A DNA stretch of 64,000 nucleotides, taken from the IMG/VR virus record IMGVR_UViG_2778261375_000003. The stretch is one strand, 5' to 3'. How positions within the stretch are numbered: position 1 is the first letter of the stretch; every line of letters starts with the position of its first letter. Shown here one piece after another: positions 15,318-55,463 of this stretch. The position numbers and the translations under genes were made by a program. The notes under the pieces were generated by a model, which was given only the letters and a program-made list of their open reading frames with translations, ran no database searches and was not told where the DNA came from. This stretch comes from a virus. Taxonomy: Duplodnaviria; Heunggongvirae; Uroviricota; Caudoviricetes.

Positions 15318-15824
15318 TTGAGTATTTTCAATAAACACGCACACCAGGAACGTCCGTATATCGTCATAGTTGATATTGATGGAACAATATCAGAGGCAAC
15401 TGAAGACAGACTGCATTTGCTTCCGCCACCAGGTAAAGGTGCATTAACAAAGGACTGGAACGAGTTTAATCTCGCCTGTGACACCGATACTCCCATCACT
15501 CCAGTTATTGATATGGTGCGCCAGTTATTTAACGTTTACACGGTCTGGTTTGTAACCGGGCGCTGTGAGATCGCAAGGGATAAAACACGAGCCTGGCTGC
15601 GGAAGTACGTAACAAACGGGGCTGAGCCTTTGCTATCTATGCGTCCTGCCACCGATGACAGAAATGACGGCCCAGCAAAGATTGATCTCCTTAAGAAAAT
15701 TGGTCTAAGTAAAATCGCGTTCGCGCTGGAAGATAAGATTGAAGTGGCGCGTGTTTTCAGGAGGAACGGCGTGCTTACGTTAATGGTCAGGGAGTATGAA
15801 AATGCGCTTCTTCATCAACAATGA
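15318..15824 (+). CDS. HAD-superfamily phosphatase-like protein (168 aa)
   Basis: N-terminal VIVDIDGTI matches HAD motif I (DxDGT). Confidence 0.55.
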   Translation: MSIFNKHAHQERPYIVIVDIDGTISEATEDRLHLLPPPGKGALTKDWNEFNLACDTDTPITPVIDMVRQLFNVYTVWFVTGRCEIARDKTRAWLRKYVTNGAEPLLSMRPATDDRNDGPAKIDLLKKIGLSKIAFALEDKIEVARVFRRNGVLTLMVREYENALLHQQ

Positions 15825-23235: not shown

Positions 23236-23299
23236 GCTGGCCTGAAGCATTCACCACGGTAGGAATTGTGATGGCGGCAGCACTGGGTTTGTATTCAAT

Positions 23300-23551
23300 T
23301 TGTCGCTGGTGGTAACGATGGGAAAAATAACTTTTGTAGTCGAATTTGAGGATGGTAAAGAGCCACCTGTTAGCGCCAATCTTGATGTTGCTGGTGGCAG
23401 GCTTGTTTCGGTTCTATTTGGTGACTACCGAGATGACTTCTTCCAACCAGAAGAAGTTGATGTAGTGCGAGAGGCATTAAACGAGTTAAGTGTTGATAAC
23501 GATGATGCTCATGCGGAAATCATCCAAAAAATGGAACTGCTAACTCACTAA
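23300..23551 (+). CDS. hypothetical small acidic protein (83 aa)
   Basis: ORF with upstream purine-rich tract. Confidence 0.45.
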   Translation: MSLVVTMGKITFVVEFEDGKEPPVSANLDVAGGRLVSVLFGDYRDDFFQPEEVDVVREALNELSVDNDDAHAEIIQKMELLTH

Positions 23552-23599
23552 ATTATCAATTATGGTGCTATCACCTACGACACCGAGAGAAAATTTATA

Positions 23600-23722
23600 A
23601 TGTCAAAAGTAAATGTTTTGATTTTTTCAGCAATTGTTGGCTTTGGTTTTACTGCCGGAGTGCAGATTTATATTACGTGGGAAAAAATCATCAACTACGC
23701 ATGGAGTTGTTTTATTAAGTGA
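23600..23722 (+). CDS. small hydrophobic peptide (40 aa)
   Basis: ATG at 23600 to TGA at 23720-23722, one predicted TM helix (MSKVNVLIFSAIVGFGFTAGVQIYITW...). Confidence 0.3.
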   Translation: MSKVNVLIFSAIVGFGFTAGVQIYITWEKIINYAWSCFIK

Positions 23723-23729
23723 GGTAAGT

Positions 23730-24023
23730 ATGTGGAGAGGTAATAGTCATGGCAAAAGCCAGATGATACTTACCGAATATAAGCTAGACCACAAAACCAA
23801 TAAATCACGTTCAGTATATTTGCTCCGGCACAATAGCCGCGTAAGAAATACCGTGCTGGAACAAAATCTGACAGTTGAAATGGATAATTACGGGGGATTC
23901 AAGCCAACAATTTCACTTGATGATTTTCCTCGTGGTTTAAGCGAAAGAGAAGCAATGCTGAAATTAGCAGAATGGCTACAAAGATTAAGCATTGCTATTG
24001 AAGATAACTGGTCTGAACCTTAA
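23730..24023 (+). CDS. hypothetical protein (97 aa)
   Basis: ATG at 23730 preceded by gaggtaag RBS-like sequence; track ORF 23634 probably over-extended. Confidence 0.45.
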   Translation: MWRGNSHGKSQMILTEYKLDHKTNKSRSVYLLRHNSRVRNTVLEQNLTVEMDNYGGFKPTISLDDFPRGLSEREAMLKLAEWLQRLSIAIEDNWSEP

Positions 24024-24029
24024 ATTTAT

Positions 24030-24404
24030 ATGATGACACTAAAACATTTTCTTGACCGCCCATTATGGGCGGCAGCCGCAGGCTATGACTTTAATTATAT
24101 GGATTGCATGTCTTATACCGCCAATGCATACGACTATTCCTTCAGTCTGCTGCTTAATTCTTTAAGAATATTGCCGCAAACAGAAGTTGGAGAGATTCAT
24201 TTATGGCTATTGGGCTTTATCGCGGCTGGAGTTGGTATTGCTGTATGGCCTTTTATTTTCTGGCTGGTGGCTGTTGTAGTGTGGTTTAAGTGCAAGACGT
24301 ACCGGAGAAAGTATTTCTTAGGTGATGGAATGACTGATATTGCCAAAATGAACATTGAAAAATGGACTAAGGAATGTGAAAAGAAATGGCGCAAAAAGAA
24401 ATGA
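24030..24404 (+). CDS. putative membrane protein (124 aa)
   Basis: hydrophobic segment LWLLGFIAAGVGIAVWPFIFWLVAVVVWF. Confidence 0.5.
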   Translation: MMTLKHFLDRPLWAAAAGYDFNYMDCMSYTANAYDYSFSLLLNSLRILPQTEVGEIHLWLLGFIAAGVGIAVWPFIFWLVAVVVWFKCKTYRRKYFLGDGMTDIAKMNIEKWTKECEKKWRKKK

Positions 24405-25036
24405 CCAGAATCACTGAAGAGCGTATATTAGAGATTATTTCCCGTATCGAAATGTATGGTCACGGTGCTGGATATACGGCAGATGAAGTATTGGAAATAG
24501 CCCAGCAGATGCTGGCCTTGAGACAAAAAGAGCAACATGAAAGTAATACGTGTAGATTGAATTTTGAGCAGTGGCTGGAACAGCAACGCGGAAAAATCGA
24601 TGTGGACTGCGGTTGTGTGTCCACTGAAACATTCATGCACTGGCTGTGGGTAGCTTACGAGGCTGGCAACTATCCGGATATTCCGGATAGTTCGGTGCCA
24701 GCGCCAGGAAAGGGCGTCACCGGTGAACGTATCCGCATTAAGCCGCATGTTTATCGCGAACTGGTTAACCGTCTCCACGATACAGCGATCAAGTGTGCTG
24801 GCACCCAGCAATTACGAGAAAGAATTAGCCGTGTTTTGGGCGACGTTATTACACCAGATCATCATAAACAAGCCGAGAAAAGTGACCTGGAAAGGTGTCA
24901 CCTTGAGGCGGCATTAAACATTAAGCCGGGGCATACGCTTGGCATTATTGATGCACTATTGGTTCATAAGATGGCCAGGGCTTTATTGCCGCTGGTGGCT
25001 GAAAAGCATGAGGTGGACCATGCCAACGAAAGCTGA
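24386..25036 (+). CDS. hypothetical protein (216 aa)
   Basis: ORF overlapping neighbour stop/start. Confidence 0.5.
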   Translation: MAQKEMTRITEERILEIISRIEMYGHGAGYTADEVLEIAQQMLALRQKEQHESNTCRLNFEQWLEQQRGKIDVDCGCVSTETFMHWLWVAYEAGNYPDIPDSSVPAPGKGVTGERIRIKPHVYRELVNRLHDTAIKCAGTQQLRERISRVLGDVITPDHHKQAEKSDLERCHLEAALNIKPGHTLGIIDALLVHKMARALLPLVAEKHEVDHANES

Positions 25037-35373: not shown

Positions 35374-36405
35374 ATGTCCAATTTACTGACCGTACACCAA
35401 AATTTGCCTGCATTACCGGTCGATGCAACGAGTGATGAGGTTCGCAAGAACCTGATGGACATGTTCAGGGATCGCCAGGCGTTTTCTGAGCATACCTGGA
35501 AAATGCTTCTGTCCGTTTGCCGGTCGTGGGCGGCATGGTGCAAGTTGAATAACCGGAAATGGTTTCCCGCAGAACCTGAAGATGTTCGCGATTATCTTCT
35601 ATATCTTCAGGCGCGCGGTCTGGCAGTAAAAACTATCCAGCAACATTTGGGCCAGCTAAACATGCTTCATCGTCGGTCCGGGCTGCCACGACCAAGTGAC
35701 AGCAACGCTGTTTCACTGGTCATGCGGCGGATCCGAAAAGAAAACGTTGATGCCGGTGAACGTGCAAAACAGGCACTAGCGTTCGAACGCACTGATTTCG
35801 ACCAGGTTCGTTCACTCATGGAAAATAGCGATCGCTGCCAGGATATACGTAATCTGGCATTTCTGGGGATTGCTTATAACACCCTGTTACGTATAGCCGA
35901 AATTGCCAGGATCAGGGTTAAAGATATCTCACGTACTGACGGTGGGAGAATGTTAATCCATATTGGCAGAACGAAAACGCTGGTTAGCACCGCAGGTGTA
36001 GAGAAGGCACTTAGCCTGGGGGTAACTAAACTGGTCGAGCGATGGATTTCTGTCTCTGGTGTGGCTGATGATCCGAATAACTACTTGTTTTGCCGGGTCA
36101 GAAAAAATGGTGTTGCCTCGCCATCATCCACCAGCCAGCTATCAACTCGCGCCCTGGAAGGGATTTTTGAAGCAACTCACCGATTGATTTACGGGGCTAA
36201 GGATGACTCTGGTCAGAGGTACCTGGCCTGGTCTGGACACAGTGCCCGTGTCGGAGCCGCGCGAGATATGGCCCGCGCCGGAGTTTCAATACCGGAGATC
36301 ATGCAAGCTGGTGGCTGGACCAACGTAAATATTGTCATGAACTATATCCGTAATCTGGATAGTGAAACGGGGGCAATGGTGCGCCTGCTGGAAGATGGTG
36401 ATTAG
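35374..36405 (+). CDS. cre: Cre tyrosine recombinase
   Basis: 343 aa beginning MSNLLTVHQNLPALPVDATSDEVRKNLMDMFRDRQAFSEHTWK; near-identical to Cre as recalled, with a few substitutions (e.g. VASPSSTSQ). Confidence 0.97.
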   Translation: MSNLLTVHQNLPALPVDATSDEVRKNLMDMFRDRQAFSEHTWKMLLSVCRSWAAWCKLNNRKWFPAEPEDVRDYLLYLQARGLAVKTIQQHLGQLNMLHRRSGLPRPSDSNAVSLVMRRIRKENVDAGERAKQALAFERTDFDQVRSLMENSDRCQDIRNLAFLGIAYNTLLRIAEIARIRVKDISRTDGGRMLIHIGRTKTLVSTAGVEKALSLGVTKLVERWISVSGVADDPNNYLFCRVRKNGVASPSSTSQLSTRALEGIFEATHRLIYGAKDDSGQRYLAWSGHSARVGAARDMARAGVSIPEIMQAGGWTNVNIVMNYIRNLDSETGAMVRLLEDGD

Positions 36406-36982: not shown

Positions 36983-37008
36983 GGCGGCCATTAGGCCGCC
37001 TTTTTTTT
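36983..37008 (+). terminator. Rho-independent terminator-like hairpin immediately upstream of the ref start codon
   Basis: ggcggcc-atta-ggccgcc followed by 8 T, ending 7 nt before the ref ATG. Confidence 0.5.
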
Positions 37009-37014
37009 GACCAT

Positions 37015-37575
37015 ATGAAAACAATCGAACAAAAAATTGAACAGTGCCGCAAGTGGCAGAAGGCAGCCAGAGAACGAGCGATCGCTCGGCAACGGGAGAA
37101 GTTGGCTGATCCGGTCTGGCGAGAATCTCAATATCAGAAAATGCGGGATACTATCGACCGCCGTATCGCTAAACAGAAAGAGCGCCCACCAGCCAGCAAA
37201 ACGCGGAAAAGCGCGGTAAAAATAAAATCTCGTGGCTTGAAGGGGAGAACACCAACGGCGGAGGAACGGCGCATCGCCAATGCTCTTGGCGCTCTCCCCT
37301 GCATTGCCTGCTACATGCATGGAGTAATATCTGAAGAGGTGTCTCTGCACCATATCTCCGGTCGTACCGCGCCGGGTTGTCACAAAAAGCAATTGCCCCT
37401 TTGCAGATGGCACCACCAGCATGCAGCACCGGCTGAAGTAAGAGAAAAATACCCTTGGCTGGTCCCTGTTCATGCCGATGGTGTGGTTGGAGGCAAGAAA
37501 GAATTCACCTTGCTGAACAAGTCAGAGATGGAGTTACTGGCTGACGCCTATGAGATGGCAAACATCATGCACTAA
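37015..37575 (+). CDS. ref: Ref recombination-enhancement HNH endonuclease
   Basis: 186 aa; basic N-terminus and HNH-like CHKKQLPLCRWHHQH motif; C1 operators upstream. Confidence 0.85.
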   Translation: MKTIEQKIEQCRKWQKAARERAIARQREKLADPVWRESQYQKMRDTIDRRIAKQKERPPASKTRKSAVKIKSRGLKGRTPTAEERRIANALGALPCIACYMHGVISEEVSLHHISGRTAPGCHKKQLPLCRWHHQHAAPAEVREKYPWLVPVHADGVVGGKKEFTLLNKSEMELLADAYEMANIMH

Positions 37576-37736
37576 TAAATATATTATTTTTAATGATAAA
37601 TGATTGACAACTGACAAGTGACTTCAGTCAGAATCATCACACGCCCGGTACGGATGGATCCCTTTTCAAATATTCCATGGACGGCACAGTCTGAGTACCG
37701 GGCGCTACCTTCAGTTGTATTGCTAAGCCGCCGCTG

Positions 37737-38405
37737 GTGGCTTTTCTTTTTTGTAGGGGCGCTATGGATAAGAAAATATGCGTTGTTTCGATGAGCGTCG
37801 GCAAACCGGCGTCAATGACTGCTGCATGGATCAATAACGAGCTGATAATGGCTGAGCGGACCAGCTACCCTGAACGCCGCCGCGACATGGAACTCCAGCT
37901 GCTGCGCGAATTGCGAGAAAAAGAGGAAAAGGGTTTTATCGTGCTGGTGGAAGAGGAAAACAGCTTTATTACTGGTCGAGTTGGCCAGCGTGTAAGGTTG
38001 CGCGATCCCTTCATGAACGGCAGGCCGGTACTAATTGAGGCAATGCAGATTTATAAGGAGCTGGAACGCCAGAAAGCAATCAAGTTACCGCGCAAGGAAT
38101 CCGGCAAATACATCCTCCACCAAAGCATCTTCGATTCCGAACACGATAAAAAAGGCGATGAATTTTTCAACATCAATTGGAGCGAAATAACGACAGAGCA
38201 TGTTCTGACGTTACTCTGTTGCTTTGCGACGGAATACAACAACGTTGCCAGCGCCGACTACATCAGGGCAATGGCTTGTGAAGTGGATAGTCGTGATGAC
38301 TCATCGCTGATAGCGTCATATATAAACATCATCAAGAAAACTCAAATTATGGGATGCGCTAGAGTTCCTCAAGGAATACTCACCGGAAAGAATAATATTC
38401 TATAA
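37737..38405 (+). CDS. mat: Mat-like protein (by position)
   Basis: ORF downstream of ref; the track start overlaps a hairpin with T-run, so the true start may be the ATG at 37764; name from P1 synteny. Confidence 0.5.
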   Translation: MAFLFCRGAMDKKICVVSMSVGKPASMTAAWINNELIMAERTSYPERRRDMELQLLRELREKEEKGFIVLVEEENSFITGRVGQRVRLRDPFMNGRPVLIEAMQIYKELERQKAIKLPRKESGKYILHQSIFDSEHDKKGDEFFNINWSEITTEHVLTLLCCFATEYNNVASADYIRAMACEVDSRDDSSLIASYINIIKKTQIMGCARVPQGILTGKNNIL

Positions 38406-38469
38406 CCTACGAAGGTTATTTGTTACTTTCTGCGTAAACCTACAACTAACCTTCCTAAGTTAAGGAAGG
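38404..38469. terminator. bidirectional terminator zone between convergent mat and the AT-rich gene
   Basis: hairpins aacctacgaaggtt and ccttcct-aagtta-aggaagg with T-rich flanks. Confidence 0.45.
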
Positions 38470-38502
38470 TATTTATCATGAAGTGTAGACATAAGCGTAT
38501 TA

Positions 38503-39543
38503 TTACATGGGCTTAACCACAACCTTTCCGTATATATCAAGTTTTGAATGTAATACGTTGACGTGAGACAATTCTTTATTCGAACTAACTTTATCTAAAA
38601 TTATATTTTTATCTTTTTCAGTCATGTTATACCCTAAGGTAATTTGCTTGAATGCAGAAAAAGGAATTTTCTTTAAGTTAATTTCATGATAGTCATGAAA
38701 AACATCAGGATACTCATTTAATAGGCAGTCATCAATCGATGGAGAGACAATGCTTCCTATTTTTCTCTCGCAATCAGCCAATGGAAAAATAATTCTACTT
38801 TCATTTTCAGGAAGCCACTCTTCACCTTTTGTATAAAGAAGCCTATTAATAAAAAGCTCGCGAACTGAATCTCGATTTAAGATCCCATGCAATGTATTAT
38901 CTTTATTCTTTATATCTATATTCCTCGATGGCGCAGGATAGCCATTAAATCGCACAGCGCCTTTATAATAGGTTACAGATGCTCTATCTTCTGGATTATA
39001 ACTAACATCACACGGCCGATATATTTTGAAAAAATCGTGTGTTTCATCGAAAACTACAGCAAACCCCTTTCCTATCGATGCATAATGAGTCCACATGTGT
39101 AGATTGCAATCACTTTTTGATAGAGAGAACACACCAAGATGACAGCTTACGGCTTCTACTAAATAATCGTTAAGGTACGTTACTATTTCTTGGAGTTTAG
39201 ATTCATCATATGAATCCATTGAGGTAAAACCTTCATTGATTAACAAGTGTGGAAAATCCTCTCCGTATCGTTTCCCGCAAGGTTTTAAATAATACTCTAA
39301 CTCTTGTATAGATGGGACATAAGATGGATCTCGTTGCATTTTCTTAAATTCATTTCTAGCCCATGCGTAATCGGCTGGTGAAAATTTATTAAAAAATGGA
39401 AGAAGTCGCGACTCACTCGACGGATCATTAAGATACTTTGGTTGCGTTGCTCTAAAGAAACCATCCTCCAGACAAGATGTTCTAATGTGCATGCCCGGCC
39501 AAGGTTTATCCATATAACTCTCGCCTATATATTTAACTAACAC
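38503..39543 (-). CDS. AT-rich 346-aa protein of unknown function at the R-M (res-mod) locus; candidate defence/accessory gene, possibly DUF2971-like
   Basis: single markedly AT-rich ORF between mat and lxc with terminators on both sides; motifs KY...LNDP and GVFSLS...MWTHYA...GFAVVFDE recall the DUF2971 pattern (from memory, unverified); GTG start. Confidence 0.7.
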   Translation of the reverse strand: MLVKYIGESYMDKPWPGMHIRTSCLEDGFFRATQPKYLNDPSSESRLLPFFNKFSPADYAWARNEFKKMQRDPSYVPSIQELEYYLKPCGKRYGEDFPHLLINEGFTSMDSYDESKLQEIVTYLNDYLVEAVSCHLGVFSLSKSDCNLHMWTHYASIGKGFAVVFDETHDFFKIYRPCDVSYNPEDRASVTYYKGAVRFNGYPAPSRNIDIKNKDNTLHGILNRDSVRELFINRLLYTKGEEWLPENESRIIFPLADCERKIGSIVSPSIDDCLLNEYPDVFHDYHEINLKKIPFSAFKQITLGYNMTEKDKNIILDKVSSNKELSHVNVLHSKLDIYGKVVVKPM

Positions 39544-39566
39544 TGTATGTCGATCCTGTTGTTTAA

Positions 39567-39584
39567 GCCCATATCATATGGGCT
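39567..39584. terminator. palindromic hairpin between lxc and the AT-rich gene
   Basis: gcccatat-c-atatgggc perfect palindrome. Confidence 0.35.
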
Positions 39585-39595
39585 TTAAATGATTA

Positions 39596-39844
39596 TTAAT
39601 CAGCATTCAGAAGCAATGCGTTATCTATGATGATCTGCTCCCATTCTTCGAATGCCCGATCGCGGACACCTTGGGGAACACTGTTAGTTTTGAAATCGAC
39701 GACCGTCCGCCATTTCCCGTCCGGGCGGTACATGCGCAGAGCTTTACTTCCCCCTTCCCTGCGCACCTCAACGTTATGCTTGTCAGCAAACTCTTGTAAT
39801 GCTCGTAGCGTCCCATGCTTTACTGTGTAGTATCGCTTTTTCAA
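39596..39844 (-). CDS. lxc: small regulatory protein (Lxc/Bof-like by position)
   Basis: 82-aa basic protein immediately upstream of ulx-darB; name from P1 synteny and size. Confidence 0.5.
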   Translation of the reverse strand: MKKRYYTVKHGTLRALQEFADKHNVEVRREGGSKALRMYRPDGKWRTVVDFKTNSVPQGVRDRAFEEWEQIIIDNALLLNAD

Positions 39845-40281
39845 GTTTTCTCTCCAGCCTGTGCCAAGGCTTCAACTTCCAAATCGTAAGACTCAAACTC
39901 ATAGTCCTGGTCGTCAACTTCTTCAGGCACTGGCAGTAAATGCCAGGCTGAGTATATCTGACCATTATCAAAACGCTCCTGGCTGTAGAGCGTCGCGGCT
40001 ATGAGTGTTAGCGCCGGGCGGTCATAACGGTAAATTTTGCGAACGTCACGGTCAACGAGACGACCGAAATTACCATAACCGCGCTCCAGTAATAATTTTT
40101 TAATTTCCGGCCAGTATGGACCATAGCTGCGGTACAGGCGGGGATTTTTCAGTAATCGCCCGCGTAGCCCTGACAGGAAGAAATCAACGTATTCGTCTTC
40201 TGTCTTTCCTAACAACGCCGTACGCAGTACCGCCTCAAGATATGTTTTATTCGGTTTTATTGTATCAGATAGTGTGGCCAT
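39841..40281 (-). CDS. ulx: Ulx-like protein (146 aa)
   Basis: ORF directly downstream of darB in the same operon; name from P1 synteny. Confidence 0.5.
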   Translation of the reverse strand: MATLSDTIKPNKTYLEAVLRTALLGKTEDEYVDFFLSGLRGRLLKNPRLYRSYGPYWPEIKKLLLERGYGNFGRLVDRDVRKIYRYDRPALTLIAATLYSQERFDNGQIYSAWHLLPVPEEVDDQDYEFESYDLEVEALAQAGEKT

Positions 40282-40314
40282 ATTATGCGACGCCCGGCGA
40301 ACCGGGCGCTCCTG

Positions 40315-43300
40315 TTATGCGTATTGTTGGATGACGGCCAGAACGTCCGCCACGTTGTGTTTTGTCTCGATAATCCACCAGTTACCCGGGAAATCGCTGT
40401 TCTTTGCCTTCGCTGGCAGCCAGCGAGCGCCGAATTTCGCCTTGATTGCGTCTTTCGCACGGAAAAGAATGCCTTTCATGCCGGACGCCTCCTGAAGCCC
40501 AAATACCTCGCCAGCGGCGAATTTTGGTGCGTACATCATCTTCAGGTCGGCGGTGGATACGCGATAATTCAGACCAAGAGACTGAGCTATGCTGGTGGCA
40601 TCACCCTGTATTGATGATAACTCTTCTTGTTTCTCGTTTCTGGCGGCAATTTCTTCCTCCGTGATGTTGCCAAGGGCCAGGTTTATCCGATCAGCGTCTG
40701 CCTGTTTCTCTTCATCGGTGCGCCCGGCAAGTACCGTGTTAATTCTGTGCAATATCTCCACATGATTCTTGCGCATGCTGAGCAATTCCGGCGTAACCTC
40801 GTTAAGGTCCACCAGCCCAAGGATGGCAAGGTCGGTAAACATTGATACCAGGTTGTAGGTCATGCGATAGCTGAGTTGCCCATAGGCTGATGGCAACTGC
40901 ACCGCATCCATTTGATAGGCATCCATAAATTTAGAGCCGTCGTTTACGACATCCGCAATTGCCGGTGTGATTTTCCCTGTGGTGGCGGCCTCCCTGATTG
41001 CTGTTACCCACGATTGAGTCAGCGCGGCGACTGCATGATTCAGATTGGCTTTCCGTTCTGCTGCAATGCGCGCGCTTGCTGCGTCCATTGCCTGCTTGAT
41101 CTCGTCTTTATTGCTGTAAATGCCAATGGTGCCAAACTGTGCTGTGGTGATCTCATAATCTGACGCCCGGAACTCATTGGTACCGAAAATGGCATTGGTG
41201 ACTTCAAGTTCAGAATCCCCGTTACGAGTAGCCCCCTGGCTTGTTTTCTCCGGCATTCTGGCGATCGCATCCGCTATTTTCTCCTGAATTGCTTCAGGGG
41301 ATAGCGTATCTCCGTATGACGCGATTACATCGCCATAATTGGAGCCAAACAGTTCAACCAGGAATGCTTCTGCCGAACGGATCTGGCGGTTATTCCCTTC
41401 CGACATCATACCAAGCACCCATTTTGCAATTGACGACTTCAGCGCGCCGTCACGGCGATCCGGGTAAACCGCATGCTTCAGTGGGTCCGTATAGGTACCA
41501 ACAAAATCAATGCTATAGCCTGACTCTGTAGTCTGAACGCCGTATGAGTCAGTGATTTTGATCATGCCGCGCTGCTGGAAACGGTAGAAATCGTCACAGG
41601 AAACGATGTCGTTAATCCCGGCGATGGAGACGCCACCACTGATTTTCTGCATAACAGCATCTTCATCGGGAGTTACATCAACCTGTTTATCCAGCGTCTT
41701 CACATCCCAGTTACCCGATTTGGTGCCTTTGAAGGTAAAGATGATCTCCACATCTGCGCGCTGGCTGTCGAAGTCCAGCGACTTAATGCGAACGATATCA
41801 CCAGCACAATCATAGTATTGGCCTACACGCCATGAGCGATCGCCGATAACAAGGAACTCACTCGCATGGTTAACCAGGTCAGGATCAACATCCAGAATGC
41901 CTTTATTTATTGCATCCTCCACCAGCGGGCGCAGGCGTTTGATATCCGTCGCGGCCTTCTGAGTACGGTTCAATAATTTCTCATAGCGGGAGATGGCTTG
42001 AGTGATATTAGCCTTGCGCTGAATGGCGCTTTTCAACGACGCGCGATACTGTGCTAACAACATACGGTCTGTGTGATGGACGCTACCCCAGCGGGCTTTC
42101 CAGTCTGCGTTATCAGCTGCTTTGGCCATTACCGCCTGTTTGAATTTAGCTACCTCGGCGGTGGTCTTTTCAAGTTCCGCTTTGCTTCGCTCTAATTCAG
42201 CGGTAAGTACCTCCACATCCTCGCCAGCTGCGTGCTGCGCCTTGATGTAGTTCTGAAGGTCGATAGTAGCCTGTTCTTTCTGGCGAGCGCGTTGCGCGGC
42301 TTTCGCCTTATCCATTTGAACCTGCATCATTGCCAGACGTTCGCCATCATCCTTAGCGGTATACATCTGCATTTCGATCATATCGTTGGCGTCGGCGTTC
42401 TCCATTTCTGACTTATCTGAACGGAGGATATCGGAGATCCAGCCTGCTTTACGCTTCAGCGTCTTCAGTCGGTATTCATCGAAAGAACCCTTGCCGCAGT
42501 AGTAGTGAACGCGAACGCTTGCACGGTTGGAGCCAACTCGGGCACCGCGACCGTTTCGTTGCGCAATACTGGCTGGAGTCCATGGCAACGTCAGATGATG
42601 GATGTCAGTCGTTCCTCGATGCAGGTTGATACCCACCTCTGCCTTTTTGTTGCAGATGATGATCGGAGTCCGGCCCTCCTGGAAGTCGGCTGCAATCTTT
42701 TCCAGACCGCCCAACGACATTTCATTTTGCTGCGCGATATAGGCGTCATACAGAGCCATTTGCTCGTTGTATTTCGCTATCTGTGCATCTGTTGGTTCAT
42801 CCGGTAACTCTTTCGGCGGTTTAACCGCTTTCAGTTTCTTACCGGTTTTACCTGCCTCGGCAACCGTCTGAGCATTCAGTATCCCCACCTTTGAAGGTTC
42901 AAGGTTAAGAGCATTGCAGATAATGCGCTTGAGCTTCTGGTGCTGCGTTTTTTCATCGGTGAAGATGATTTGCTTACCTTCCGGGAAAAACTCCTTCAGC
43001 GTGGCAATCAGCTTCGCGTATTTGGGCGTAACGGGGTGAGTTACGGTCTGTTCGTCAATGCCAAACCTGGCCAGGCGCTTATTCACTTCCTGCTCGAACG
43101 CTTCCGGAACCTGCAACTGAATAAACTCGCCCTTATCTATCAGGGAGTATTGCGATTGCTGCGTGATTGAATCATCACTGTCGTCGTCTTCGCTGGTGGC
43201 TTGTTTAGGCAAACTGTCTGCCAGCTGCTGCACCGCATCGGCGTACTCCGGCAGGAAACGATAGGTGATCCGGCGATAGTACAGGTCCATGTCAGTACAT

Positions 43301-46300
43301 ACGCGGTCCATATCCCTGATTATTGAGAAGATCGGACGGGCTTTCTCGTGCTCAATCACGCCGTCTTCATTGACCGAGGTCGTTACACCATTGTTGGCTT
43401 TGGCCGCCGCTTCCGCCTGCTGACGCAATTCTTCATACGCCGCCAGTTGTTCTTCAGTAAGTGGTGCATCCTGCTGGTGTTCGTCCAGTTCCGGGATCTC
43501 CACGGTATCCTTAACGTCTTCCGCCGTTTTAAGCGTTGTCCAGCGATGGAATATGCCGCGCAGCGCATCAAGGTTTTCAAAACCCACCAGCGCCATTTTT
43601 TCTTCAACTTCGCCGCTGATTTTCTGTACCGTTTCCAGCCTGGTCTTGCCGAAGAATTTAACGAAGTCATCAGGACCGTAGATCCCCATCTTCTGCCAGT
43701 ATTCCTTCGGCAGAACATGAGAAAGCATGTTGTATGCATCGATCGGGGTGTTAACGACTGGCGTTGCAGTCAGGAGAACCGGTCCACGCCCACCATTCTT
43801 TTTCATCAGGTACGCGTTTTTGATTGCCATATCTCGCGCCGATTGCGCCACCGCGCTGGTGGGCAGATAGGCCAGCTGTGACGCTTCGCGACCATTTTTA
43901 TAGCTATTGCGGTAGTTGTGGCCTTCGTCAGCAATCACGCTGTCGAAGCCCATATCCTCAAAGTACGGATACTTCTCTGCTTTTTCGGTACCGGTATCTG
44001 AATACTCCGACAATACCCGGCGACGCGCCGCCTCTTTGCGATGGGAATCGGAGTCCATTGCGCTGGCCACACGCCCGGCAGCAACGAAGTCATAAAGCAT
44101 GTCTTGTGCATGCTCATCTACGGTGTCATCACGTAGCGGAATGCGGGCGTATTGTTCTTTGGTAAACACGACTGCACGGTAGTTTGAGTGCGGGATCGCG
44201 TTCATCCGCGCCGTGATAGTGGCTTCATCTGCCAGCTTAAGAGCATCGCGCATAACTGGAGTGCCATCAGTACCAAGAACAGGTTTACCGTTCTCATTGA
44301 GCACCGGCACCTGGCGAATCTGATCGCCATCCATCAGCACATCAAGACCGACGAACAAGTAGTTACTGAATGCCTCTTCACTCAGGAATTCTTTTGCTTC
44401 GTAATACCAATTTTCCAGCACTGATTTAGGCACTACATACGCAGTACGGGTAGAGCGACCGTTCTCATAGTTGAACGCCTCAAGCGCCAGCGCGGTCGTG
44501 GTTTTACCCAGCCCGGTGCCGAAGCCCAGGATGCCGCGCCCATCTTCGGACAGTCGGCGCACCTCGCTATTCTGGTAATCAAATGGCTGGCGCTTACCGC
44601 TTAATCCCTTCAACCCAAGCGGATCGCCAGAGTGTTCATACGGGATATTGCTATTGAACACATCGTTGTATTTGGCAACCAGCTCATCGTAGCGATCGTG
44701 CGTCTTGATCCACTTATTGAACTGGTCCTCAAGCAGTGCCATCTGCTCGCGGTAGCCGTTCGCCGTCGCGCTATCTTTGCCACCGATACGCGCACCATTG
44801 AGATACTTTTCCAGCTGTGCCGGGAACCCGGTCGCGTTTTCACCCGATTTACGGTCCCACTCGTAGCGGATCTCGCCTGTTTCTTTATCCTTGCGCTGGA
44901 CGACACCGTATCGGTGCCCGACGAACAGACCATCACCACCGTGATAGGTGTCAGAAACCATTTCGTCGCCTTCCAGCTGCACTGACTGCACATAGCGCAG
45001 ATCCGGATAGCCGTTTTCCTGCAAAAATTCCAGAATGACGGAGCGGTCGAACCAACGGCTATTGAGCTTAAAGCGAATATTCTCTGCTGACGTCTTGATG
45101 CGCTTCTCTTCGATCGCTGCCAGCTGATTAAGGACGTTGTTCTTTACTGGACCGTCGGGGAGTGTGGCAAGAAATTCCTGTTTTGGAGCCACTATCTCGT
45201 TAATGTCGCCGCTGGTGGCGCGGGCGAACGGAACAATCCCGCCATACGGTGAAACCGCAATACCAGGGGTGCTGGCCAATAAATTAAGCAACTCTTCATC
45301 ACTGGCTGGCAGTTCGCCGGTAAACGCAAAGCGGAAATCATCGAGCTGGATTGGATCGCGGGTAAGATCGCTATAGAGATAACGCAGGGTGTCCTGATAG
45401 CTGGTGGAGTCATAACTGGCGCTGGAATCATGCGTAACCAGCTTTCCTGTCAGCTCGTCAGAAATAGTGCCATCCAGCTTAATCGCACCACGGAAAGCAA
45501 ACCAGGCGCGCGCACCGCTCCCCGACAATTTCGCTATCGGACCGCGACCGGGGTTACCAAAACGGTCAATCTCTGCCTGCAAACGGGATACCAGAGAAAG
45601 GCGCTGCTGTTCGATTTGTTCAGCACTATGCCCGGCGGCCTTCATGTCCTGATATTCAATTAACATCCGGCCAATCATCGCCCCGCGATACAAGCGTTCA
45701 CGGTATTTTTCAGGCTGGCTGTTAATCCAGTCCACCAGCTGCACCATATCGTCGCTGATTGATGTGGTGTACTTATCGCGGACATTTGCCATCTGGGTAA
45801 ATGTCATGCCGAGACGGCCTTCTGTTGTAGTCAGGTTACGCTGAAGAGCCTCCCAGCTATCCGCGCCATAACTGGCAGCATCGATCTTAAGTTCCTTCCC
45901 GGCATCAGCTTCAATCCAGCGACCACCAGCATATTTTTGCCATACGCCATTAATCAGGCGCATTTCCCCTTCACCAACAACGTCTGCGGTCGGTGACGGT
46001 TCAGCCATATCGAGCAAAGACCAGTCGATACGGCTTTCGAAACGATGAATCAGCTTCGCTTTAAGAGCCTGGTTATCAATCTGACCGTCGGCACGAACCT
46101 CAATACGCCCCTGGAAGCCCTTTTCCTGGGTGCCATGAACAAACCGGCGGCCGTCCTTTTCAAACCACTTGCCAGAAATAAACGTTGGCCAAAGCACATT
46201 TGCCGATTCGAGAGTGCTTTCATCCACCAGGGGGATTTTCTCAGCCATCTCTGCCGGATGTTTGCGCATCAGCACCACATCTACGACCGTACTGGTCCCG

Positions 46301-47082
46301 TTAGCGTCAAAAGTACCGGTAGGCAAGCGGTGGGCACCAAGAAATTCAGCTTTCCGTGATAGGCGCAGGCGTAACCGCTTCATGTTTGAACCTGAAACAA
46401 TGGACGGCGGCACAATCACGCACATGAATCCGCCTGGCTTTATCTTGTCCAGCATGCGGAGCATGAAGTAAGAACCCATGTCCGTTTCTTCTGCGTAAGG
46501 CTTATCGATGTTGCGTGTGTTATCACGACCACCGAACGGAACGTTACCCACAACATGGTCGAATGAATCGTTAGGCGTGCTTACAGCCAGTTGTTCGAAC
46601 GGAGAAATCTGTACGCTGTCTTCCGGGTGCAACAGCTGGTTTATACGACCGGAAACACTGCTGATCTCAGTCGCGGTCATCACCGTACCAACCGGTTTTG
46701 TCTCATTAAAAACGCCGGTTCCCGCCGATGGTTCCAGAGTGTTACCTACGTCCGCGCCGTAGAGCTTCATGATCTCCCAGACACCTTCAGCGATCGGCTT
46801 TGGTGTGTAATATTCGGAGACGGACCCGCCAATGCCGCCTTCGCCGGTGTACCCAGCCAGGATCTGGCGCTGTTCATCTGTCAGTGTCGCGCCGTCCACC
46901 AGCGAATTAAGCAAATCTATCGCCTTCTGATTCGCCTCCCGGCGTAGTCGGTCATAGCTTTTGCCTTCCACCTTTTCCACGCCGTATCTAATCGGCGCTC
47001 GGTGAGATGTTATTGCCCTAATGTATTTCAATATTTCGCTGACACTTGAACAGCGAAACACCCCTATAGATAGCTTGTTCAT
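40315..47082 (-). CDS. darB: DarB antirestriction protein (N6-adenine methyltransferase + DExH helicase fusion)
   Basis: 2255 aa; AdoMet motif LEPSAGTGVF and NVPFGG, helicase Walker A GFGTGLGKTTTAL and DEGH box. Confidence 0.9.
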   Translation of the reverse strand: MNKLSIGVFRCSSVSEILKYIRAITSHRAPIRYGVEKVEGKSYDRLRREANQKAIDLLNSLVDGATLTDEQRQILAGYTGEGGIGGSVSEYYTPKPIAEGVWEIMKLYGADVGNTLEPSAGTGVFNETKPVGTVMTATEISSVSGRINQLLHPEDSVQISPFEQLAVSTPNDSFDHVVGNVPFGGRDNTRNIDKPYAEETDMGSYFMLRMLDKIKPGGFMCVIVPPSIVSGSNMKRLRLRLSRKAEFLGAHRLPTGTFDANGTSTVVDVVLMRKHPAEMAEKIPLVDESTLESANVLWPTFISGKWFEKDGRRFVHGTQEKGFQGRIEVRADGQIDNQALKAKLIHRFESRIDWSLLDMAEPSPTADVVGEGEMRLINGVWQKYAGGRWIEADAGKELKIDAASYGADSWEALQRNLTTTEGRLGMTFTQMANVRDKYTTSISDDMVQLVDWINSQPEKYRERLYRGAMIGRMLIEYQDMKAAGHSAEQIEQQRLSLVSRLQAEIDRFGNPGRGPIAKLSGSGARAWFAFRGAIKLDGTISDELTGKLVTHDSSASYDSTSYQDTLRYLYSDLTRDPIQLDDFRFAFTGELPASDEELLNLLASTPGIAVSPYGGIVPFARATSGDINEIVAPKQEFLATLPDGPVKNNVLNQLAAIEEKRIKTSAENIRFKLNSRWFDRSVILEFLQENGYPDLRYVQSVQLEGDEMVSDTYHGGDGLFVGHRYGVVQRKDKETGEIRYEWDRKSGENATGFPAQLEKYLNGARIGGKDSATANGYREQMALLEDQFNKWIKTHDRYDELVAKYNDVFNSNIPYEHSGDPLGLKGLSGKRQPFDYQNSEVRRLSEDGRGILGFGTGLGKTTTALALEAFNYENGRSTRTAYVVPKSVLENWYYEAKEFLSEEAFSNYLFVGLDVLMDGDQIRQVPVLNENGKPVLGTDGTPVMRDALKLADEATITARMNAIPHSNYRAVVFTKEQYARIPLRDDTVDEHAQDMLYDFVAAGRVASAMDSDSHRKEAARRRVLSEYSDTGTEKAEKYPYFEDMGFDSVIADEGHNYRNSYKNGREASQLAYLPTSAVAQSARDMAIKNAYLMKKNGGRGPVLLTATPVVNTPIDAYNMLSHVLPKEYWQKMGIYGPDDFVKFFGKTRLETVQKISGEVEEKMALVGFENLDALRGIFHRWTTLKTAEDVKDTVEIPELDEHQQDAPLTEEQLAAYEELRQQAEAAAKANNGVTTSVNEDGVIEHEKARPIFSIIRDMDRVCTDMDLYYRRITYRFLPEYADAVQQLADSLPKQATSEDDDSDDSITQQSQYSLIDKGEFIQLQVPEAFEQEVNKRLARFGIDEQTVTHPVTPKYAKLIATLKEFFPEGKQIIFTDEKTQHQKLKRIICNALNLEPSKVGILNAQTVAEAGKTGKKLKAVKPPKELPDEPTDAQIAKYNEQMALYDAYIAQQNEMSLGGLEKIAADFQEGRTPIIICNKKAEVGINLHRGTTDIHHLTLPWTPASIAQRNGRGARVGSNRASVRVHYYCGKGSFDEYRLKTLKRKAGWISDILRSDKSEMENADANDMIEMQMYTAKDDGERLAMMQVQMDKAKAAQRARQKEQATIDLQNYIKAQHAAGEDVEVLTAELERSKAELEKTTAEVAKFKQAVMAKAADNADWKARWGSVHHTDRMLLAQYRASLKSAIQRKANITQAISRYEKLLNRTQKAATDIKRLRPLVEDAINKGILDVDPDLVNHASEFLVIGDRSWRVGQYYDCAGDIVRIKSLDFDSQRADVEIIFTFKGTKSGNWDVKTLDKQVDVTPDEDAVMQKISGGVSIAGINDIVSCDDFYRFQQRGMIKITDSYGVQTTESGYSIDFVGTYTDPLKHAVYPDRRDGALKSSIAKWVLGMMSEGNNRQIRSAEAFLVELFGSNYGDVIASYGDTLSPEAIQEKIADAIARMPEKTSQGATRNGDSELEVTNAIFGTNEFRASDYEITTAQFGTIGIYSNKDEIKQAMDAASARIAAERKANLNHAVAALTQSWVTAIREAATTGKITPAIADVVNDGSKFMDAYQMDAVQLPSAYGQLSYRMTYNLVSMFTDLAILGLVDLNEVTPELLSMRKNHVEILHRINTVLAGRTDEEKQADADRINLALGNITEEEIAARNEKQEELSSIQGDATSIAQSLGLNYRVSTADLKMMYAPKFAAGEVFGLQEASGMKGILFRAKDAIKAKFGARWLPAKAKNSDFPGNWWIIETKHNVADVLAVIQQYA

Positions 47083-51619: not shown

Positions 51620-52732
51620 TTAGAATTGGTAGGTCATACCAACAGCAACGATGTTGTCGGTTGCAACCTCAGATCTTTTGGTAAATTCACTTTCATCAAT
51701 CAGGTTGATCTTGTAGTCAACGAAAGCGGACATATTTTTGTTGAAGTAATAAGTCGCACCCAAGTCGATGTATTCAACCAGATCCTGGCTGCCGAACGCA
51801 CCAATATTTTCACCGCGAGAGTGCAGATAAGCGATGGACGGACGCAGGCCGAAATCAAACTGGTATTGAGCAACAGCTTCAAAGTTTTTCGCCTTGTTCG
51901 CGATAAAGTCATCACCGAAGACAGTCATATTCTGAGTTTCAGAATAAGTTGCAGCCAGGTAAATGTTATTTGCGTCATATTTCAGGCCAGTAGCCCATAC
52001 TTCAGCAGTTTTACCAGAAGCATTCAGAGGATCCTTTTTAGCATAGGATACCTGCCCATCAGTACGATCAGATTTTGCATAGGTTGCACCAACGCCAAAT
52101 CCTTCATAATCGTAAGTAGCAGACAGACCAAAGCCATCACCATTAGATTCAACTACGTCACGGCCTTTCCAGTTGTTCACTTTTGCAGCACTATCATTTT
52201 TACCTTGATACTGCAAAGCAAAGTTCAGACCATCAACCAGGCCGAAGAAATCATTGTTACGGTAGGTGGCTACGCCAGTAGCACGCTGGGTCATAAATAC
52301 ATCGGTCTGAGTCCAGGTATCTCCACCAAACTCAGGCAGCACGTCAGTCCAAGCGCCAATATCATAAGCTACACCATAGTTGCGACCATAGTCGATTGAA
52401 CCATAATCAGCAAAACGGAGGCCAGCAAATGCAAGACGAGTTTTATCTTTATCAGAGCCCTCAGATTCAGTACGGTTACCTTTAAATTCGTACTCCCACT
52501 GACCAAAACCGGTTAACTGGTCATTAATCTGAGTTTCACCTTTGAATCCCAGACGAGCATAAGTCTTATCTCCGTCATCACTAGCTGAAGAAGAGAAGTA
52601 ATGTTCTGCGTTAACTTTGCCGTACAGATCCAGTTTATTACCGTCTTTGTTGTAGATTTCAGCTGCTTGCGCAGACATTGCCATCAGGACAGATGCTGCA
52701 ACCGCAGAGAGTGCCACTGTGATTTTTTTCAT
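51620..52732 (-). CDS. general outer-membrane porin (NmpC/Lc/OmpC family)
   Basis: 370 aa; signal peptide [39 protein letters not shown] and C-terminal ...VAVGMTYQF, classical enterobacterial porin signature. Confidence 0.9.
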
Positions 52733-52844
52733 TTTTTTTGCCCTTTAGATTGAACTTTTCAGTAGAAAAGAAGTCACTGCGGACAAATGTTTATCTTTTT
52801 TGGATTCGTGTTTCAAGTTTTGCAAATAAAAATCAAGGTATTTT

Positions 52845-52860
52845 TGTGATCAAAATCACA
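52845..52860. promoter_or_regulatory. CRP-type binding-site palindrome upstream of the porin gene
   Basis: TGTGA-TCAAAA-TCACA, perfect match to TGTGA-N6-TCACA, about 120 bp upstream of the porin start within an AT-rich island. Confidence 0.55.
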
Positions 52861-53473
52861 AATAATAGCCTTGAAAACCCAATGGACTATTAGAAAAAAC
52901 TCAATTCACAGAATAAAAATTGACAAAATAGATCAAAAAACAATCAAAAATAAGCACAAAAGACAAACAATTAAATTATCACAAAAATAATAACTGTCAA
53001 AAATAGATAGCCTGTTAATTAACAGGGCTTTAATGGATGTAGACTTGAAATCTACTTAAAAATTAGAATCAAATTAATTACTGCCGATTGGGTATTAAAT
53101 TGAATCTATATTGTGAGAGTTAAAGACGATGTGTTTTAGTTATAAATGTTATTCCCTAAAATGGAGCGGTCTCATCGAATCCTGATTAATAACGAGCTAA
53201 GCTAATTCATTTTAGTATGTGTATATCTTTACCCTCTGAATATGCAATAAAGAAGAGATATTAAACAATATGTAGCTTCAGGATTGACTCTGGAAGAATT
53301 AAAAGATCGACTAAAGTGTTCAATATGTGGTGAGCGAAACGCAAAAATTAATTTTTTTTGATCTAACATATTAGGTAACGGCTTGCTTCCATAACCTAAA
53401 GCAAGCCACTACGCGTTTACTTTAAGTACACAATTAACATATCAGAACAGATTATTTTTGCACAATCAGGGAG

Positions 53474-53785
53474 TTAATATACGATCTGGTCTACATGATC
53501 ACCAAAATCATCATCGTCGTCGTCATCATCGCCACCATCTACTGCTGGCCAATCAACAAACCAGCCAGCGTAAAGATGCAGCGTTCGGAGAACATCACTT
53601 GCGGGAGCATCAAGGGTGTTAACGAATCCCATATAGCTATTGGGATTTGCCCCAGCTATGGCTTCAGCGATCATGTCCTCGGTAATGTCACCGGAGATAA
53701 TGCTTAAACGCCCGGAAACTTCTTCATTATCATCAAATTCGATAATGGCATCTCCGCCTAATGGCGCTGCGATTTTAATCTGCAT
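53474..53785 (-). CDS. small highly acidic protein with poly-Asp tract (103 aa)
   Basis: C-terminal GGDDDDDDDDFGDH run; last gene of the leftward dar operon. Confidence 0.5.
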   Translation of the reverse strand: MQIKIAAPLGGDAIIEFDDNEEVSGRLSIISGDITEDMIAEAIAGANPNSYMGFVNTLDAPASDVLRTLHLYAGWFVDWPAVDGGDDDDDDDDFGDHVDQIVY

Positions 53786-55463
53786 TATTTAGATCCTTTG
53801 CCACACCTAATAACAGTTCCAGCAATCCGTCACCATTCATCAGTGATGCGGCAGCGGCCTCTTTGTCATGATACAACTGAAGAGCCATAGAGAATACTTC
53901 CGTTGCTGACGTTTTGGAAATAGTCGGTGATTTCTGCCGAATTTTCCCGGTGTTACTTACTGAGGCTGGCGGGTATACCTTCGCCATATAAATATTACTC
54001 AATCGAGATCTGAAGCACCATTCAGGCTTGCCACGCCCACCGATATTAACGAAAGATGGCTTATCCCCTTCAACATTGGCCTTCAGGAATGACCGGGCTT
54101 TCTCTAACAAACCAGGGTTACTGTACTCAAGATGATGACCCAGCTCGTGCCACAGTGCACTTGCATTTTCATCGTTCAAATTGACAGCAACAACACCATT
54201 AAGATTTGCATATGCCCTTCCCTGGTGGTGAACCACCTTTGATAAGGTCGAAATTTTACCGCCGGTCAGGCGATAAATATCAGCAAGTTCCTTGCGCAGG
54301 TCTATCCCACCATTCTGTCCAGCGCGGGCTTCTTCCACTTCTTCCGTGATAAAAGAGTCGGCCCACTCAAGAGCTTTTTCTTCAGATACGGATGAGTTTG
54401 CGATCGCACTGTTCATGGCAGATAACACTTTCTCGTGGACCGAACCCATTCTTCGCTGATTCATTTGCCAGCGTGTCTGCGGGTTATATGAGAATCGCTT
54501 AAGTAGTTGGTCAAGCTGCTCAAGTTCTTCTTCACTGACATACCTTTTAGCCTCACCAATAATGCCAGGGAGAATATTGCCGTTAGGATTAAACGCTCGC
54601 GAAAGGAAGAGTTTCAGCGCCCCCATGCCCTCCGATGCTTCAATATCACCAATAACCCGGTTAACAATGGCCGCACTCTTCGGATTAGCATCCGCCAACG
54701 CTCTGGCTACAATTTGCAGGGACGATACGACCTCACGCTGCATATCAGTCCTGATCTCATCAATAAACTCTGGCGTTATGCCGTGCTCTTTAAGGATATC
54801 CCTGCCTTCCGCCGTTACCCCATCGATATCACCGACATGTTTATTAACCCGACTTTGCAATGCCTTAAATGCCTTCAGAATTCCACGGGCATCATCCGCT
54901 TTAATAACGGCCTTCCTGAATGCTGGCAAGAAGTCTGAGTTAACCTCATTTTGTTGATCGGCCCACTGAATGGAGGCTTCTTTCATCTCGTCCAGAGTCA
55001 GATCACCCAACGCGGTATGGTCTGTGAATATGAGCGACAACCTCTGAACCATTTCTGCCAATGGTGATGCCGAATGCGCCGCGCTAAGGAATGCTTTCAC
55101 CCTGGTTGGGCGAATGGAAAACCAGTCAATAGCTGGTGGCATATCTCCGTTTTTTATCGCCTGCGCTATCTCGTCAAAGCCATCGCGCCCAAGGGAGGAT
55201 GCGTGATTTAACAAGCCGCGAAGTAACGAATTGCTGATACCGAATAATCGGCACCATTTATTCACGTCGGCAACAGGCATTCGAACAAAATGCGCAAGCA
55301 CTTGTACAAGCTGTTCATCCTGGGGATCTGTTCGGGAAAGCAGCCTGATCAGATGAATAATGTCTTTGATGCCGGATGCCCGATGTAATAGCAAGCTGGT
55401 ATATGGCGCAACACCGTTGTATCCGCTGCTGGTGGCCATAACTATCTGATCGTTTAAACTCAT
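53775..55463 (-). CDS. hypothetical protein (562 aa) in the darA operon (DdrB position)
   Basis: ORF overlapping its neighbours in a co-directional operon downstream of darA. Confidence 0.55.
   Translation of the reverse strand: MSLNDQIVMATSSGYNGVAPYTSLLLHRASGIKDIIHLIRLLSRTDPQDEQLVQVLAHFVRMPVADVNKWCRLFGISNSLLRGLLNHASSLGRDGFDEIAQAIKNGDMPPAIDWFSIRPTRVKAFLSAAHSASPLAEMVQRLSLIFTDHTALGDLTLDEMKEASIQWADQQNEVNSDFLPAFRKAVIKADDARGILKAFKALQSRVNKHVGDIDGVTAEGRDILKEHGITPEFIDEIRTDMQREVVSSLQIVARALADANPKSAAIVNRVIGDIEASEGMGALKLFLSRAFNPNGNILPGIIGEAKRYVSEEELEQLDQLLKRFSYNPQTRWQMNQRRMGSVHEKVLSAMNSAIANSSVSEEKALEWADSFITEEVEEARAGQNGGIDLRKELADIYRLTGGKISTLSKVVHHQGRAYANLNGVVAVNLNDENASALWHELGHHLEYSNPGLLEKARSFLKANVEGDKPSFVNIGGRGKPEWCFRSRLSNIYMAKVYPPASVSNTGKIRQKSPTISKTSATEVFSMALQLYHDKEAAAASLMNGDGLLELLLGVAKDLNNAD

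Follow-up and report, generated by a model that had tools for sequence, protein, structure and literature searches.

What occupies the interval between mat and lxc in a P1-like phage-plasmid when the restriction genes of P1 are missing from it? In canonical P1 (NC_005856), res and an IS5-interrupted mod lie between these two genes. The question was raised by a 64,000-nucleotide stretch of the IMG/VR record IMGVR_UViG_2778261375_000003 (hereafter the window), itself a P1-like (Punavirus) phage-plasmid, in which the interval holds one AT-rich open reading frame (ORF) on the minus strand, here called ORF346 (38503-39543). It encodes a 346-aa DUF2971 protein with a GTG start and a predicted ADP-ribosyltransferase (ART)-like fold. 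The explanation that the evidence somewhat favours is that ORF346 is a self-contained, single-gene DUF2971 anti-phage effector, carried as exchangeable cargo of the mat-lxc site (RD-1) of P1-like phage-plasmids. The anti-phage role, taken by itself, is reasonably probable, and the more specific prediction that ORF346 ADP-ribosylates nucleic acids is put forward tentatively.

A preliminary description of the window, made from its letters, had placed res and mod in P1 correctly and had proposed ORF346 as swapped cargo in a defence-type slot. One finding that it had named as fatal to this proposal, a conserved gene of the P1 backbone, was not made, canonical P1 holding res and mod instead.

A single AT-rich gene between mat and lxc

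Between the stop codons of mat (38405) and lxc (39596), ORF346 is the sole plausible gene, with gaps of 52 nt on its 5' side and 97 nt on its 3' side, so that the cassette has no space for a partner gene. The cargo interval (38406-39595) has a GC content of 0.354 against 0.483 for the whole window, and only 0.5% of sliding windows of cargo size (mean GC 0.482, standard deviation 0.034) are equally low; the single AT-rich minus-strand gene of the preliminary description is thereby borne out. An AGGA ribosome-binding site (39554-39557) lies 10 nt ahead of the GTG, which is taken as the correct start because the N-terminus MLVKY is conserved, being kept in 45 homologues. An internal ATG at 39513 was rejected as a start, as the conserved MLVKY lies N-terminal to it. 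The motifs PKYLNDP and GVFSLS..HMWTHYA..GKGFAVVFDE, pointed out earlier, are present in the translation.

The same gene is found in MH422554.1, an isolate deposited as 'Punavirus P1', where the DUF2971 ORF is intact at 2138-3178 of the compared stretch with 99.3% DNA identity. The GenBank annotation of that record leaves it unmarked, passing from Mat to the modulator protein with a gap where the gene lies.

An exchange site with fixed breakpoints

Window positions 37000-40400 were used as a megablast query against plasmid and phage records. The flanks are common to 710 plasmid records and 21 phage records, but the whole interval is recovered in one piece in only 78 and 2 of these kinds of record, respectively; the DUF2971 cargo itself is present in 90 plasmid records. 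Junctions were mapped by comparing eight slot variants, across which the breakpoints are identical. On the left, nucleotide homology with the other variants ends at about 38287, within the 3' end of mat, whose conserved part (37764-38287, plus strand) forms the left flank of the site. On the right, every variant regains homology precisely at the stop codon of lxc (39595-39600), the conserved flank being lxc itself (39596-39844, minus strand), which encodes the C1 modulator. The last ~39 codons of mat (38288-38405, plus strand) travel with the cassette and encode a diverged Mat C-terminus for which homology across variants is kept at protein level. The window's mat 3' allele occurs at ≥99% identity in 88 plasmid records, against the 90 that hold the cargo; the exchanged unit is therefore 38288-39595, for whose movement homologous recombination within mat and lxc is presumed. 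Each variant brings its own GC-rich hairpin directly after lxc. Comparison of these records demonstrates, at the level of nucleotide homology, that ORF346 is a horizontally swapped, AT-rich cargo gene.

The mat 3' ends vary with the cargo: the alleles linked to DUF2971 and to the EAL cargo have diverged strongly, and all others belong to a single class. The near one-to-one tie between the window's allele and the DUF2971 cargo (88 versus 90 plasmid records) has a simple explanation in hitch-hiking. A bolder, speculative addition would couple the cassette-linked Mat C-terminus in function to the cargo, making it more than a hitch-hiker.

The alternative occupants of the slot suggest what kind of gene it receives. 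One is the EcoPI res-mod locus of P1, and another is the RelA/SpoT protein of Salmonella phage SJ46, CapRel-SJ46 (2472-3593 of the compared stretch), an experimentally validated defence protein (PMC9712102) that PADLOC v2 labels merely as candidate PDC-S33 (E 7e-87). A preprint on nucleoid-protein-activated effectors (10.64898/2026.04.06.716658) cites CapRel-SJ46 for structural comparison only. Further variants hold SIR2 proteins matching ThsA, LmuA and PDC-S25 models, a PIN/DUF4935 protein matching PDC-S34 and PD-T7-3, YaaC together with a small ORF, an EAL-domain protein, and a GNAT acetyltransferase. ORF346 thus sits in a hotspot with validated systems as alternative occupants, a location generally looked for in defence systems, and the earlier proposal of swapped cargo in a defence-type slot gains support from the fixed breakpoints and from EcoPI and CapRel-SJ46 as its alternatives. 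The site has been published as a low-GC variable region, 'RD-1' (PMC6906374) or 'region 1' (PMC9603915), and both papers list it without reading it as a slot for defence genes.

The cassette was found in 63 of 5,426 complete E. coli genomes and the lxc-ulx backbone in 699. P1-like elements thus occur in ~13% of these genomes, and ~9% of the elements carry the DUF2971 cassette.

Family, predicted fold and candidate active site

The preliminary description had suggested DUF2971 from motif patterns, and a hidden Markov model search of Pfam agreed: PF11185 matches ORF346 residues 150-251 with 28.4 bits against a gathering cut-off of 22 (E 4.2e-6), covers its full 89-position model, and is matched by all 40 aligned relatives as well. 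No other Pfam or NCBIfam family matches ORF346, the NCBIfam result being entirely empty. With PADLOC, four PDC-S31 models were matched (E 3.2e-16 for the best to 1e-6); the PDC series comprises 145 candidates defined by their embedding in BREX, DISARM or type I restriction-modification (R-M) loci (bioRxiv 10.1101/2024.01.29.577857). The PHROGs match is phrog_1762, which has no annotated function. Membership of the DarT family was not indicated, Pfam and PADLOC scans to E 1 giving only DUF2971 and PDC-S31.

The close homologues that span the full length (36-53% identity, ~350 aa) come from Klebsiella, Serratia, Salmonella, Vibrio, Shewanella and other hosts. A profile search over 1.84 billion cluster representatives (50% identity clusters) returned 39 representatives at E ≤ 1e-30 and 8,682 at E ≤ 1e-3; on this sampling of sequence space, the ~350-aa gammaproteobacterial group is a small subfamily within a very large DUF2971 superfamily. 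HMMER searches of the Protein Data Bank (PDB) sequences with two family alignments gave no match, and hence no sequence-detectable DUF2971 relative has a solved structure.

A separate set of carriers emerged from a plasmid tblastn with ORF346. Some 180 non-mobilizable plasmids, mostly of ~107-128 kb and from Klebsiella, Enterobacter, Citrobacter, Salmonella and E. coli, encode a distant DUF2971 protein with 22-27% identity to ORF346 (e.g., NZ_CP056436.1, 30200-30796; CP074286.1, 89999-90595). They may represent a second phage-plasmid group with DUF2971 cargo.

The AlphaFold2 model of ORF346 (mean predicted local distance difference test score, pLDDT, 91.9) has an ART-like fold with the split beta-sheet of this class. 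The known proteins listed in comparison with it include SopF, CteC, TreX, CopC, heat-labile enterotoxin, scabin and pertussis toxin. Its secondary structure comprises a strand at 29-31, helices within 56-135, a strand at 136-142, helices within 218-246, and a strand at 248-254. DUF2971 has been classed as ADP-ribosyltransferase-like, with a core carrying large helical inserts between strands 1-2 and 4-5 (PMC12522546), and the order of elements in ORF346 agrees with that description. Conservation was assessed from an alignment of 40 proteins, reaching down to 22% identity, in which K4, R31, D40, Y154, G160, Y182, K239, W243, E248, R250 and G304 are invariant, E246 is conserved in ≥90%, and position 140 is S or C within a [S/C]-x-[S/T] motif. 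The candidate catalytic residues are thus R31, S140-x-S142, Y154 and E246-x-E248 (E246-N-E248), and in the alignment they form an ART-type signature of R, [S/C]x[S/T] plus Y, and ExE. Y154, E246 and E248 correspond to the motif II tyrosine and motif III ExE that serve to recognise DUF2971 proteins (PMC12522546). The preliminary description had seen no Walker, helicase, methyltransferase or obvious nuclease motif, and indeed no ATPase, helicase, methyltransferase or classical nuclease domain was found in ORF346; what it had overlooked was this ART-type signature. Residues 255-346 are conserved family-wide and are, for that reason, regarded as part of the unit and not as a lineage-specific addition.

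Orthologues in other genomic contexts

The Salmonella orthologue stands alone, on the opposite strand, between the baseplate gene V (gpV) and the tail gene S (gpS) of P2-like prophages, an arrangement seen in 121 collection blocks. The Serratia orthologue is found where a P2-like prophage ends, beside smpB, and is followed by a 347-aa gene matching candidate PDC-S64. In Klebsiella, the gene belongs to a small islet of the chromosome and neighbours an ABC-type ATPase of 509 aa, which matches HEC-04, AbiLi, AriA, PtuA, GajA and Old models, and the Shewanella one has an uninformative chromosomal context. The genes at P2-like moron sites lie at 8001-9050, and at 8001-9053 and 11113-12156, of the compared stretches.

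In every host the GC content of the orthologue is 35-39%. No conserved neighbour or partner was found among the orthologue loci, and the gene is therefore considered to act alone; a two-gene toxin-antitoxin reading was rejected, as the cassette has no room for a second gene and the orthologues share no conserved neighbour. Orthologues hold ~50% identity with synonymous sites saturated. Within the lineage, 4 synonymous and 3 non-synonymous changes were counted, too few to inform the ratio of non-synonymous to synonymous rates (dN/dS).

Hairpins and transcription signals

The preliminary description had ORF346 bracketed by hairpin terminators. Hairpins do exist on both sides, but their role as terminators is less certain. 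The 5' leader (39544-39595, minus strand), immediately after the lxc stop, contains a hairpin followed by the AGGA site. This hairpin (39565-39585, AAGCCCATATGATATGGGCTT), between the lxc stop and the ORF346 start, has a folding free energy (dG) of -12.1 kcal/mol and a z-score of -3.4, equalled by 0 of 200 shuffles, and it is without a U-tract on the ORF346 strand. The intergenic region on the 3' side (38406-38502), where mat and ORF346 converge, is a candidate bidirectional terminator with two hairpins, one with an 8-bp stem at 38449-38470 between mat and ORF346 and a small one at 38402-38419 that overlaps the mat stop. A terminator scan returned 2 sites against 1.7 expected from shuffled sequence, which is no excess.

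The site equivalent to the annotated P2mod promoter of P1 gives, on manual reading, a weak hexamer pair only, and for this reason no promoter is claimed for ORF346. Transcription in the lysogen is instead expected to come through lxc, whose corepressor product is active in the prophage, given that no promoter of its own was found for ORF346; the read-through that would reach ORF346 probably derives from lxc. No C1 operator was found within ~1.5 kb of the gene. Across the window, the C1-operator consensus gave 14 matches at ≤3 mismatches versus 0.29 by chance (e.g., at 15824, 34787 and 50862), with none between 36917 and 47011; as a pattern of matches, this fits a P1-type immunity circuit.

Comparison with known systems

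Aristaios, from the Lactococcus plasmid pUCCL641_199, is a 316-aa single-gene DUF2971 protein (PMC11381338, PMC13064643) with validated abortive infection activity, blocking phage transcription and protein production (PMC11381338). Its host is Gram-positive, whereas ORF346 belongs to a distinct gammaproteobacterial ~350-aa subfamily, and the plasmid tblastn with ORF346 gave no Lactococcus match. PDC-S31 is likewise a single-gene candidate with a DUF2971 core and is matched in part by ORF346; its founders lie inside BREX, DISARM or R-M loci, whereas ORF346 is located in a phage-plasmid, and both are still candidates.

DarT, of DarTG, is an ADP-ribosyltransferase of thymidine in single-stranded DNA. 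The DarG macrodomain antitoxin is absent next to ORF346, and the protein differs from DarT in having the His of motif I replaced by Arg, in its two large helical inserts and in its extra 255-346 module. CapRel-SJ46 shares with ORF346 the mat-lxc slot, and it combines effector and self-restraint in one polypeptide that works by abortive infection. It differs in its unrelated fold and chemistry (a toxSAS tRNA pyrophosphokinase), in lying on the opposite strand, and in that its own trigger is known, a capsid protein (PMC9712102). EcoPI res-mod has the same slot and the same low-GC character of a 'recent acquisition', and it protects the lysogen from foreign DNA; unlike ORF346, it is a two-gene, ~5 kb type III R-M system that tells self from non-self by methylation, and the two have no homology.

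Proposed mode of action and alternative explanations

In the mechanism we propose, ORF346 would be made at low level in the lysogen by lxc read-through across the hairpin that lacks a U-tract, and would not be controlled by a C1 operator. The protein would be kept inactive by its own non-catalytic parts, namely its large helical inserts and the module of residues 255-346, all conserved across the family, until triggered by a superinfecting phage. Triggered ORF346 would then use NAD+ to ADP-ribosylate DNA or RNA (compare DarT, CmdT and Tpt1-type enzymes) or a core gene-expression protein. Transcription and translation would shut down, leading to abortive infection and protection of the P1-carrying population.

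Several observations weigh against this explanation. ORF346 and its ~350-aa subfamily are known from sequence and predicted structure alone; the ART motifs are conserved in sequence and map to the strands at 29-31, 136-142 and 248-254, and the NAD+ pocket that they would line is a putative one. The likeness between Aristaios and ORF346 is the shared Pfam domain only, and Aristaios is known by its phenotype, not by its chemistry. The PDC-S31 match is partial (e.g., ORF346 residues 118-324 on positions 92-238 of a 259-position model). A sigma-70-like promoter sought upstream of ORF346 on its strand was not found. The EAL, GNAT and YaaC cargos match no defence model, so that an exclusive use of the slot for defence is not proven, and the neighbouring genes darB and ulx are anti-restriction genes, compatible with a role in phage offence.

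The alternative that survives best, although its probability is small, keeps the fold and changes the chemistry: ORF346 could be a Tpt1-like RNA 2'-phosphotransferase or end-modifier, or a glycohydrolase that depletes NAD+. The combination of ExE with [S/C]x[S/T] is typical of R-S-E-type transferases (PMC12522546), which argues against both variants. Aristaios, moreover, blocks transcription and protein production and does not cause a general collapse, a weakly discriminating point.

Another alternative is an offensive or anti-defence ART, which P1 would use during lytic growth or establishment to modify host proteins or nucleic acids and which would extend the darB-ulx anti-restriction module. 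The T4 proteins Alt, ModA and ModB, phage ARTs for host takeover, are precedents, as are enzymes that counter host immunity; ORF346 follows directly after darB, ulx and lxc in their direction of transcription and belongs to a family with a PHROG. Such a role is nevertheless unlikely: the same site alternates with bona fide defence genes (EcoPI, CapRel-SJ46), and the gene is dispensable, only ~9% of P1-like elements carrying the cassette. Some orthologues, moreover, lie outside phages, in chromosomal islets next to ATPases of defence type, the family is found embedded in BREX, DISARM and R-M loci, and a search of BFVD, a weak test, recovered no viral ART.

Some features of the family and the site could suggest a role unrelated to phage, in plasmid addiction (as a toxin), in competition between bacteria or as an effector directed at the host: some DUF2971 proteins of Legionella are predicted to be secreted effectors, ~18% of DUF2971 proteins are predicted effectors (PMC12522546), and P1 res-mod at the same site doubles as an addiction module (PMC6906374). 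ORF346 has neither signal peptide, secretion-system context, cognate antitoxin nor immunity gene, and the subfamily is carried by several unrelated temperate phage types at known moron sites, so this role appears very improbable. The undetected promoter might speak for a neutral hitch-hiker, cargo that does nothing for the element at present, and the few within-lineage changes are uninformative; this reading deserves hardly any credence given an ORF intact in ~90 plasmid records and 63 complete E. coli genomes, the retention of every family-invariant residue, and ~50% orthologue identity despite saturated synonymous sites.

Beyond the favoured explanation of a DUF2971 anti-phage effector, a wider proposal, which we regard as rather unlikely, is that the mat-lxc slot is a dedicated exchange site for self-contained, single-polypeptide immune sensor-effectors, with CapRel, SIR2, PIN and the DUF2971 protein among its occupants besides EcoPI, and that ORF346 is an antitoxin-less, phage-triggered nucleic-acid ART restrained by its own inserts and C-terminal module. 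If true, a superfamily of thousands of sequence clusters would gain its first mechanistic model, and in a tractable E. coli/P1 setting.

Other features of the window

Around the slot, cre (35374-36405) and ref (37015-37575) lie on the plus strand ahead of mat, and ulx (39841-40281) and darB (40315-47082) on the minus strand beyond lxc. Two further low-GC patches were noted. The first, at 51841-54161, overlaps a porin gene (51620-52732, minus strand) encoding a full-length Gram-negative protein of 370 aa (Pfam Porin_1, E 3.9e-148), which may serve lysogenic conversion or a receptor swap; for the nearby ORFs 53474-53785 and 53775-55463, Pfam and PADLOC gave no match. The second, at 23241-24661 (GC <0.40), lies downstream of a DUF551-containing ORF (21955-23235), includes the small ORFs 24030-24404 and 24386-25036, which also lack Pfam and PADLOC matches, and may be another cargo slot.

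Significance

The preliminary description had ranked ORF346 as the best candidate in the window for an undescribed single-gene anti-phage or exclusion function. On the sequence evidence it is a credible candidate, but 'undescribed' goes too far: the gene already bears the RefSeq label 'DUF2971 domain-containing protein' in ~90 plasmids, and PDC-S31, Aristaios, the ART classification and RD-1 have all been published. Three points seem to be new to the literature searched: RD-1 as a defence-cassette slot with fixed breakpoints that also houses CapRel-SJ46; a ~350-aa DUF2971 subfamily riding both P1-like and P2-like temperate phages; and an Arg-type motif I together with the [S/C]x[S/T] motif in the DUF2971 family.

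With these, the published variable region RD-1 is recast as a cassette slot for EcoPI, CapRel-SJ46 and further candidates. P1-like elements, present in ~13% of complete E. coli genomes, often carry resistance genes, so that their immune cargo could influence phage therapy and gene flow. DUF2971 has 8,682 cluster representatives, yet one member, Aristaios, with a validated anti-phage phenotype; the P1-borne copy provides a natural and tractable E. coli setting for the chemistry of the family, its targets, and the silencing of a toxic ART in which no antitoxin takes part.

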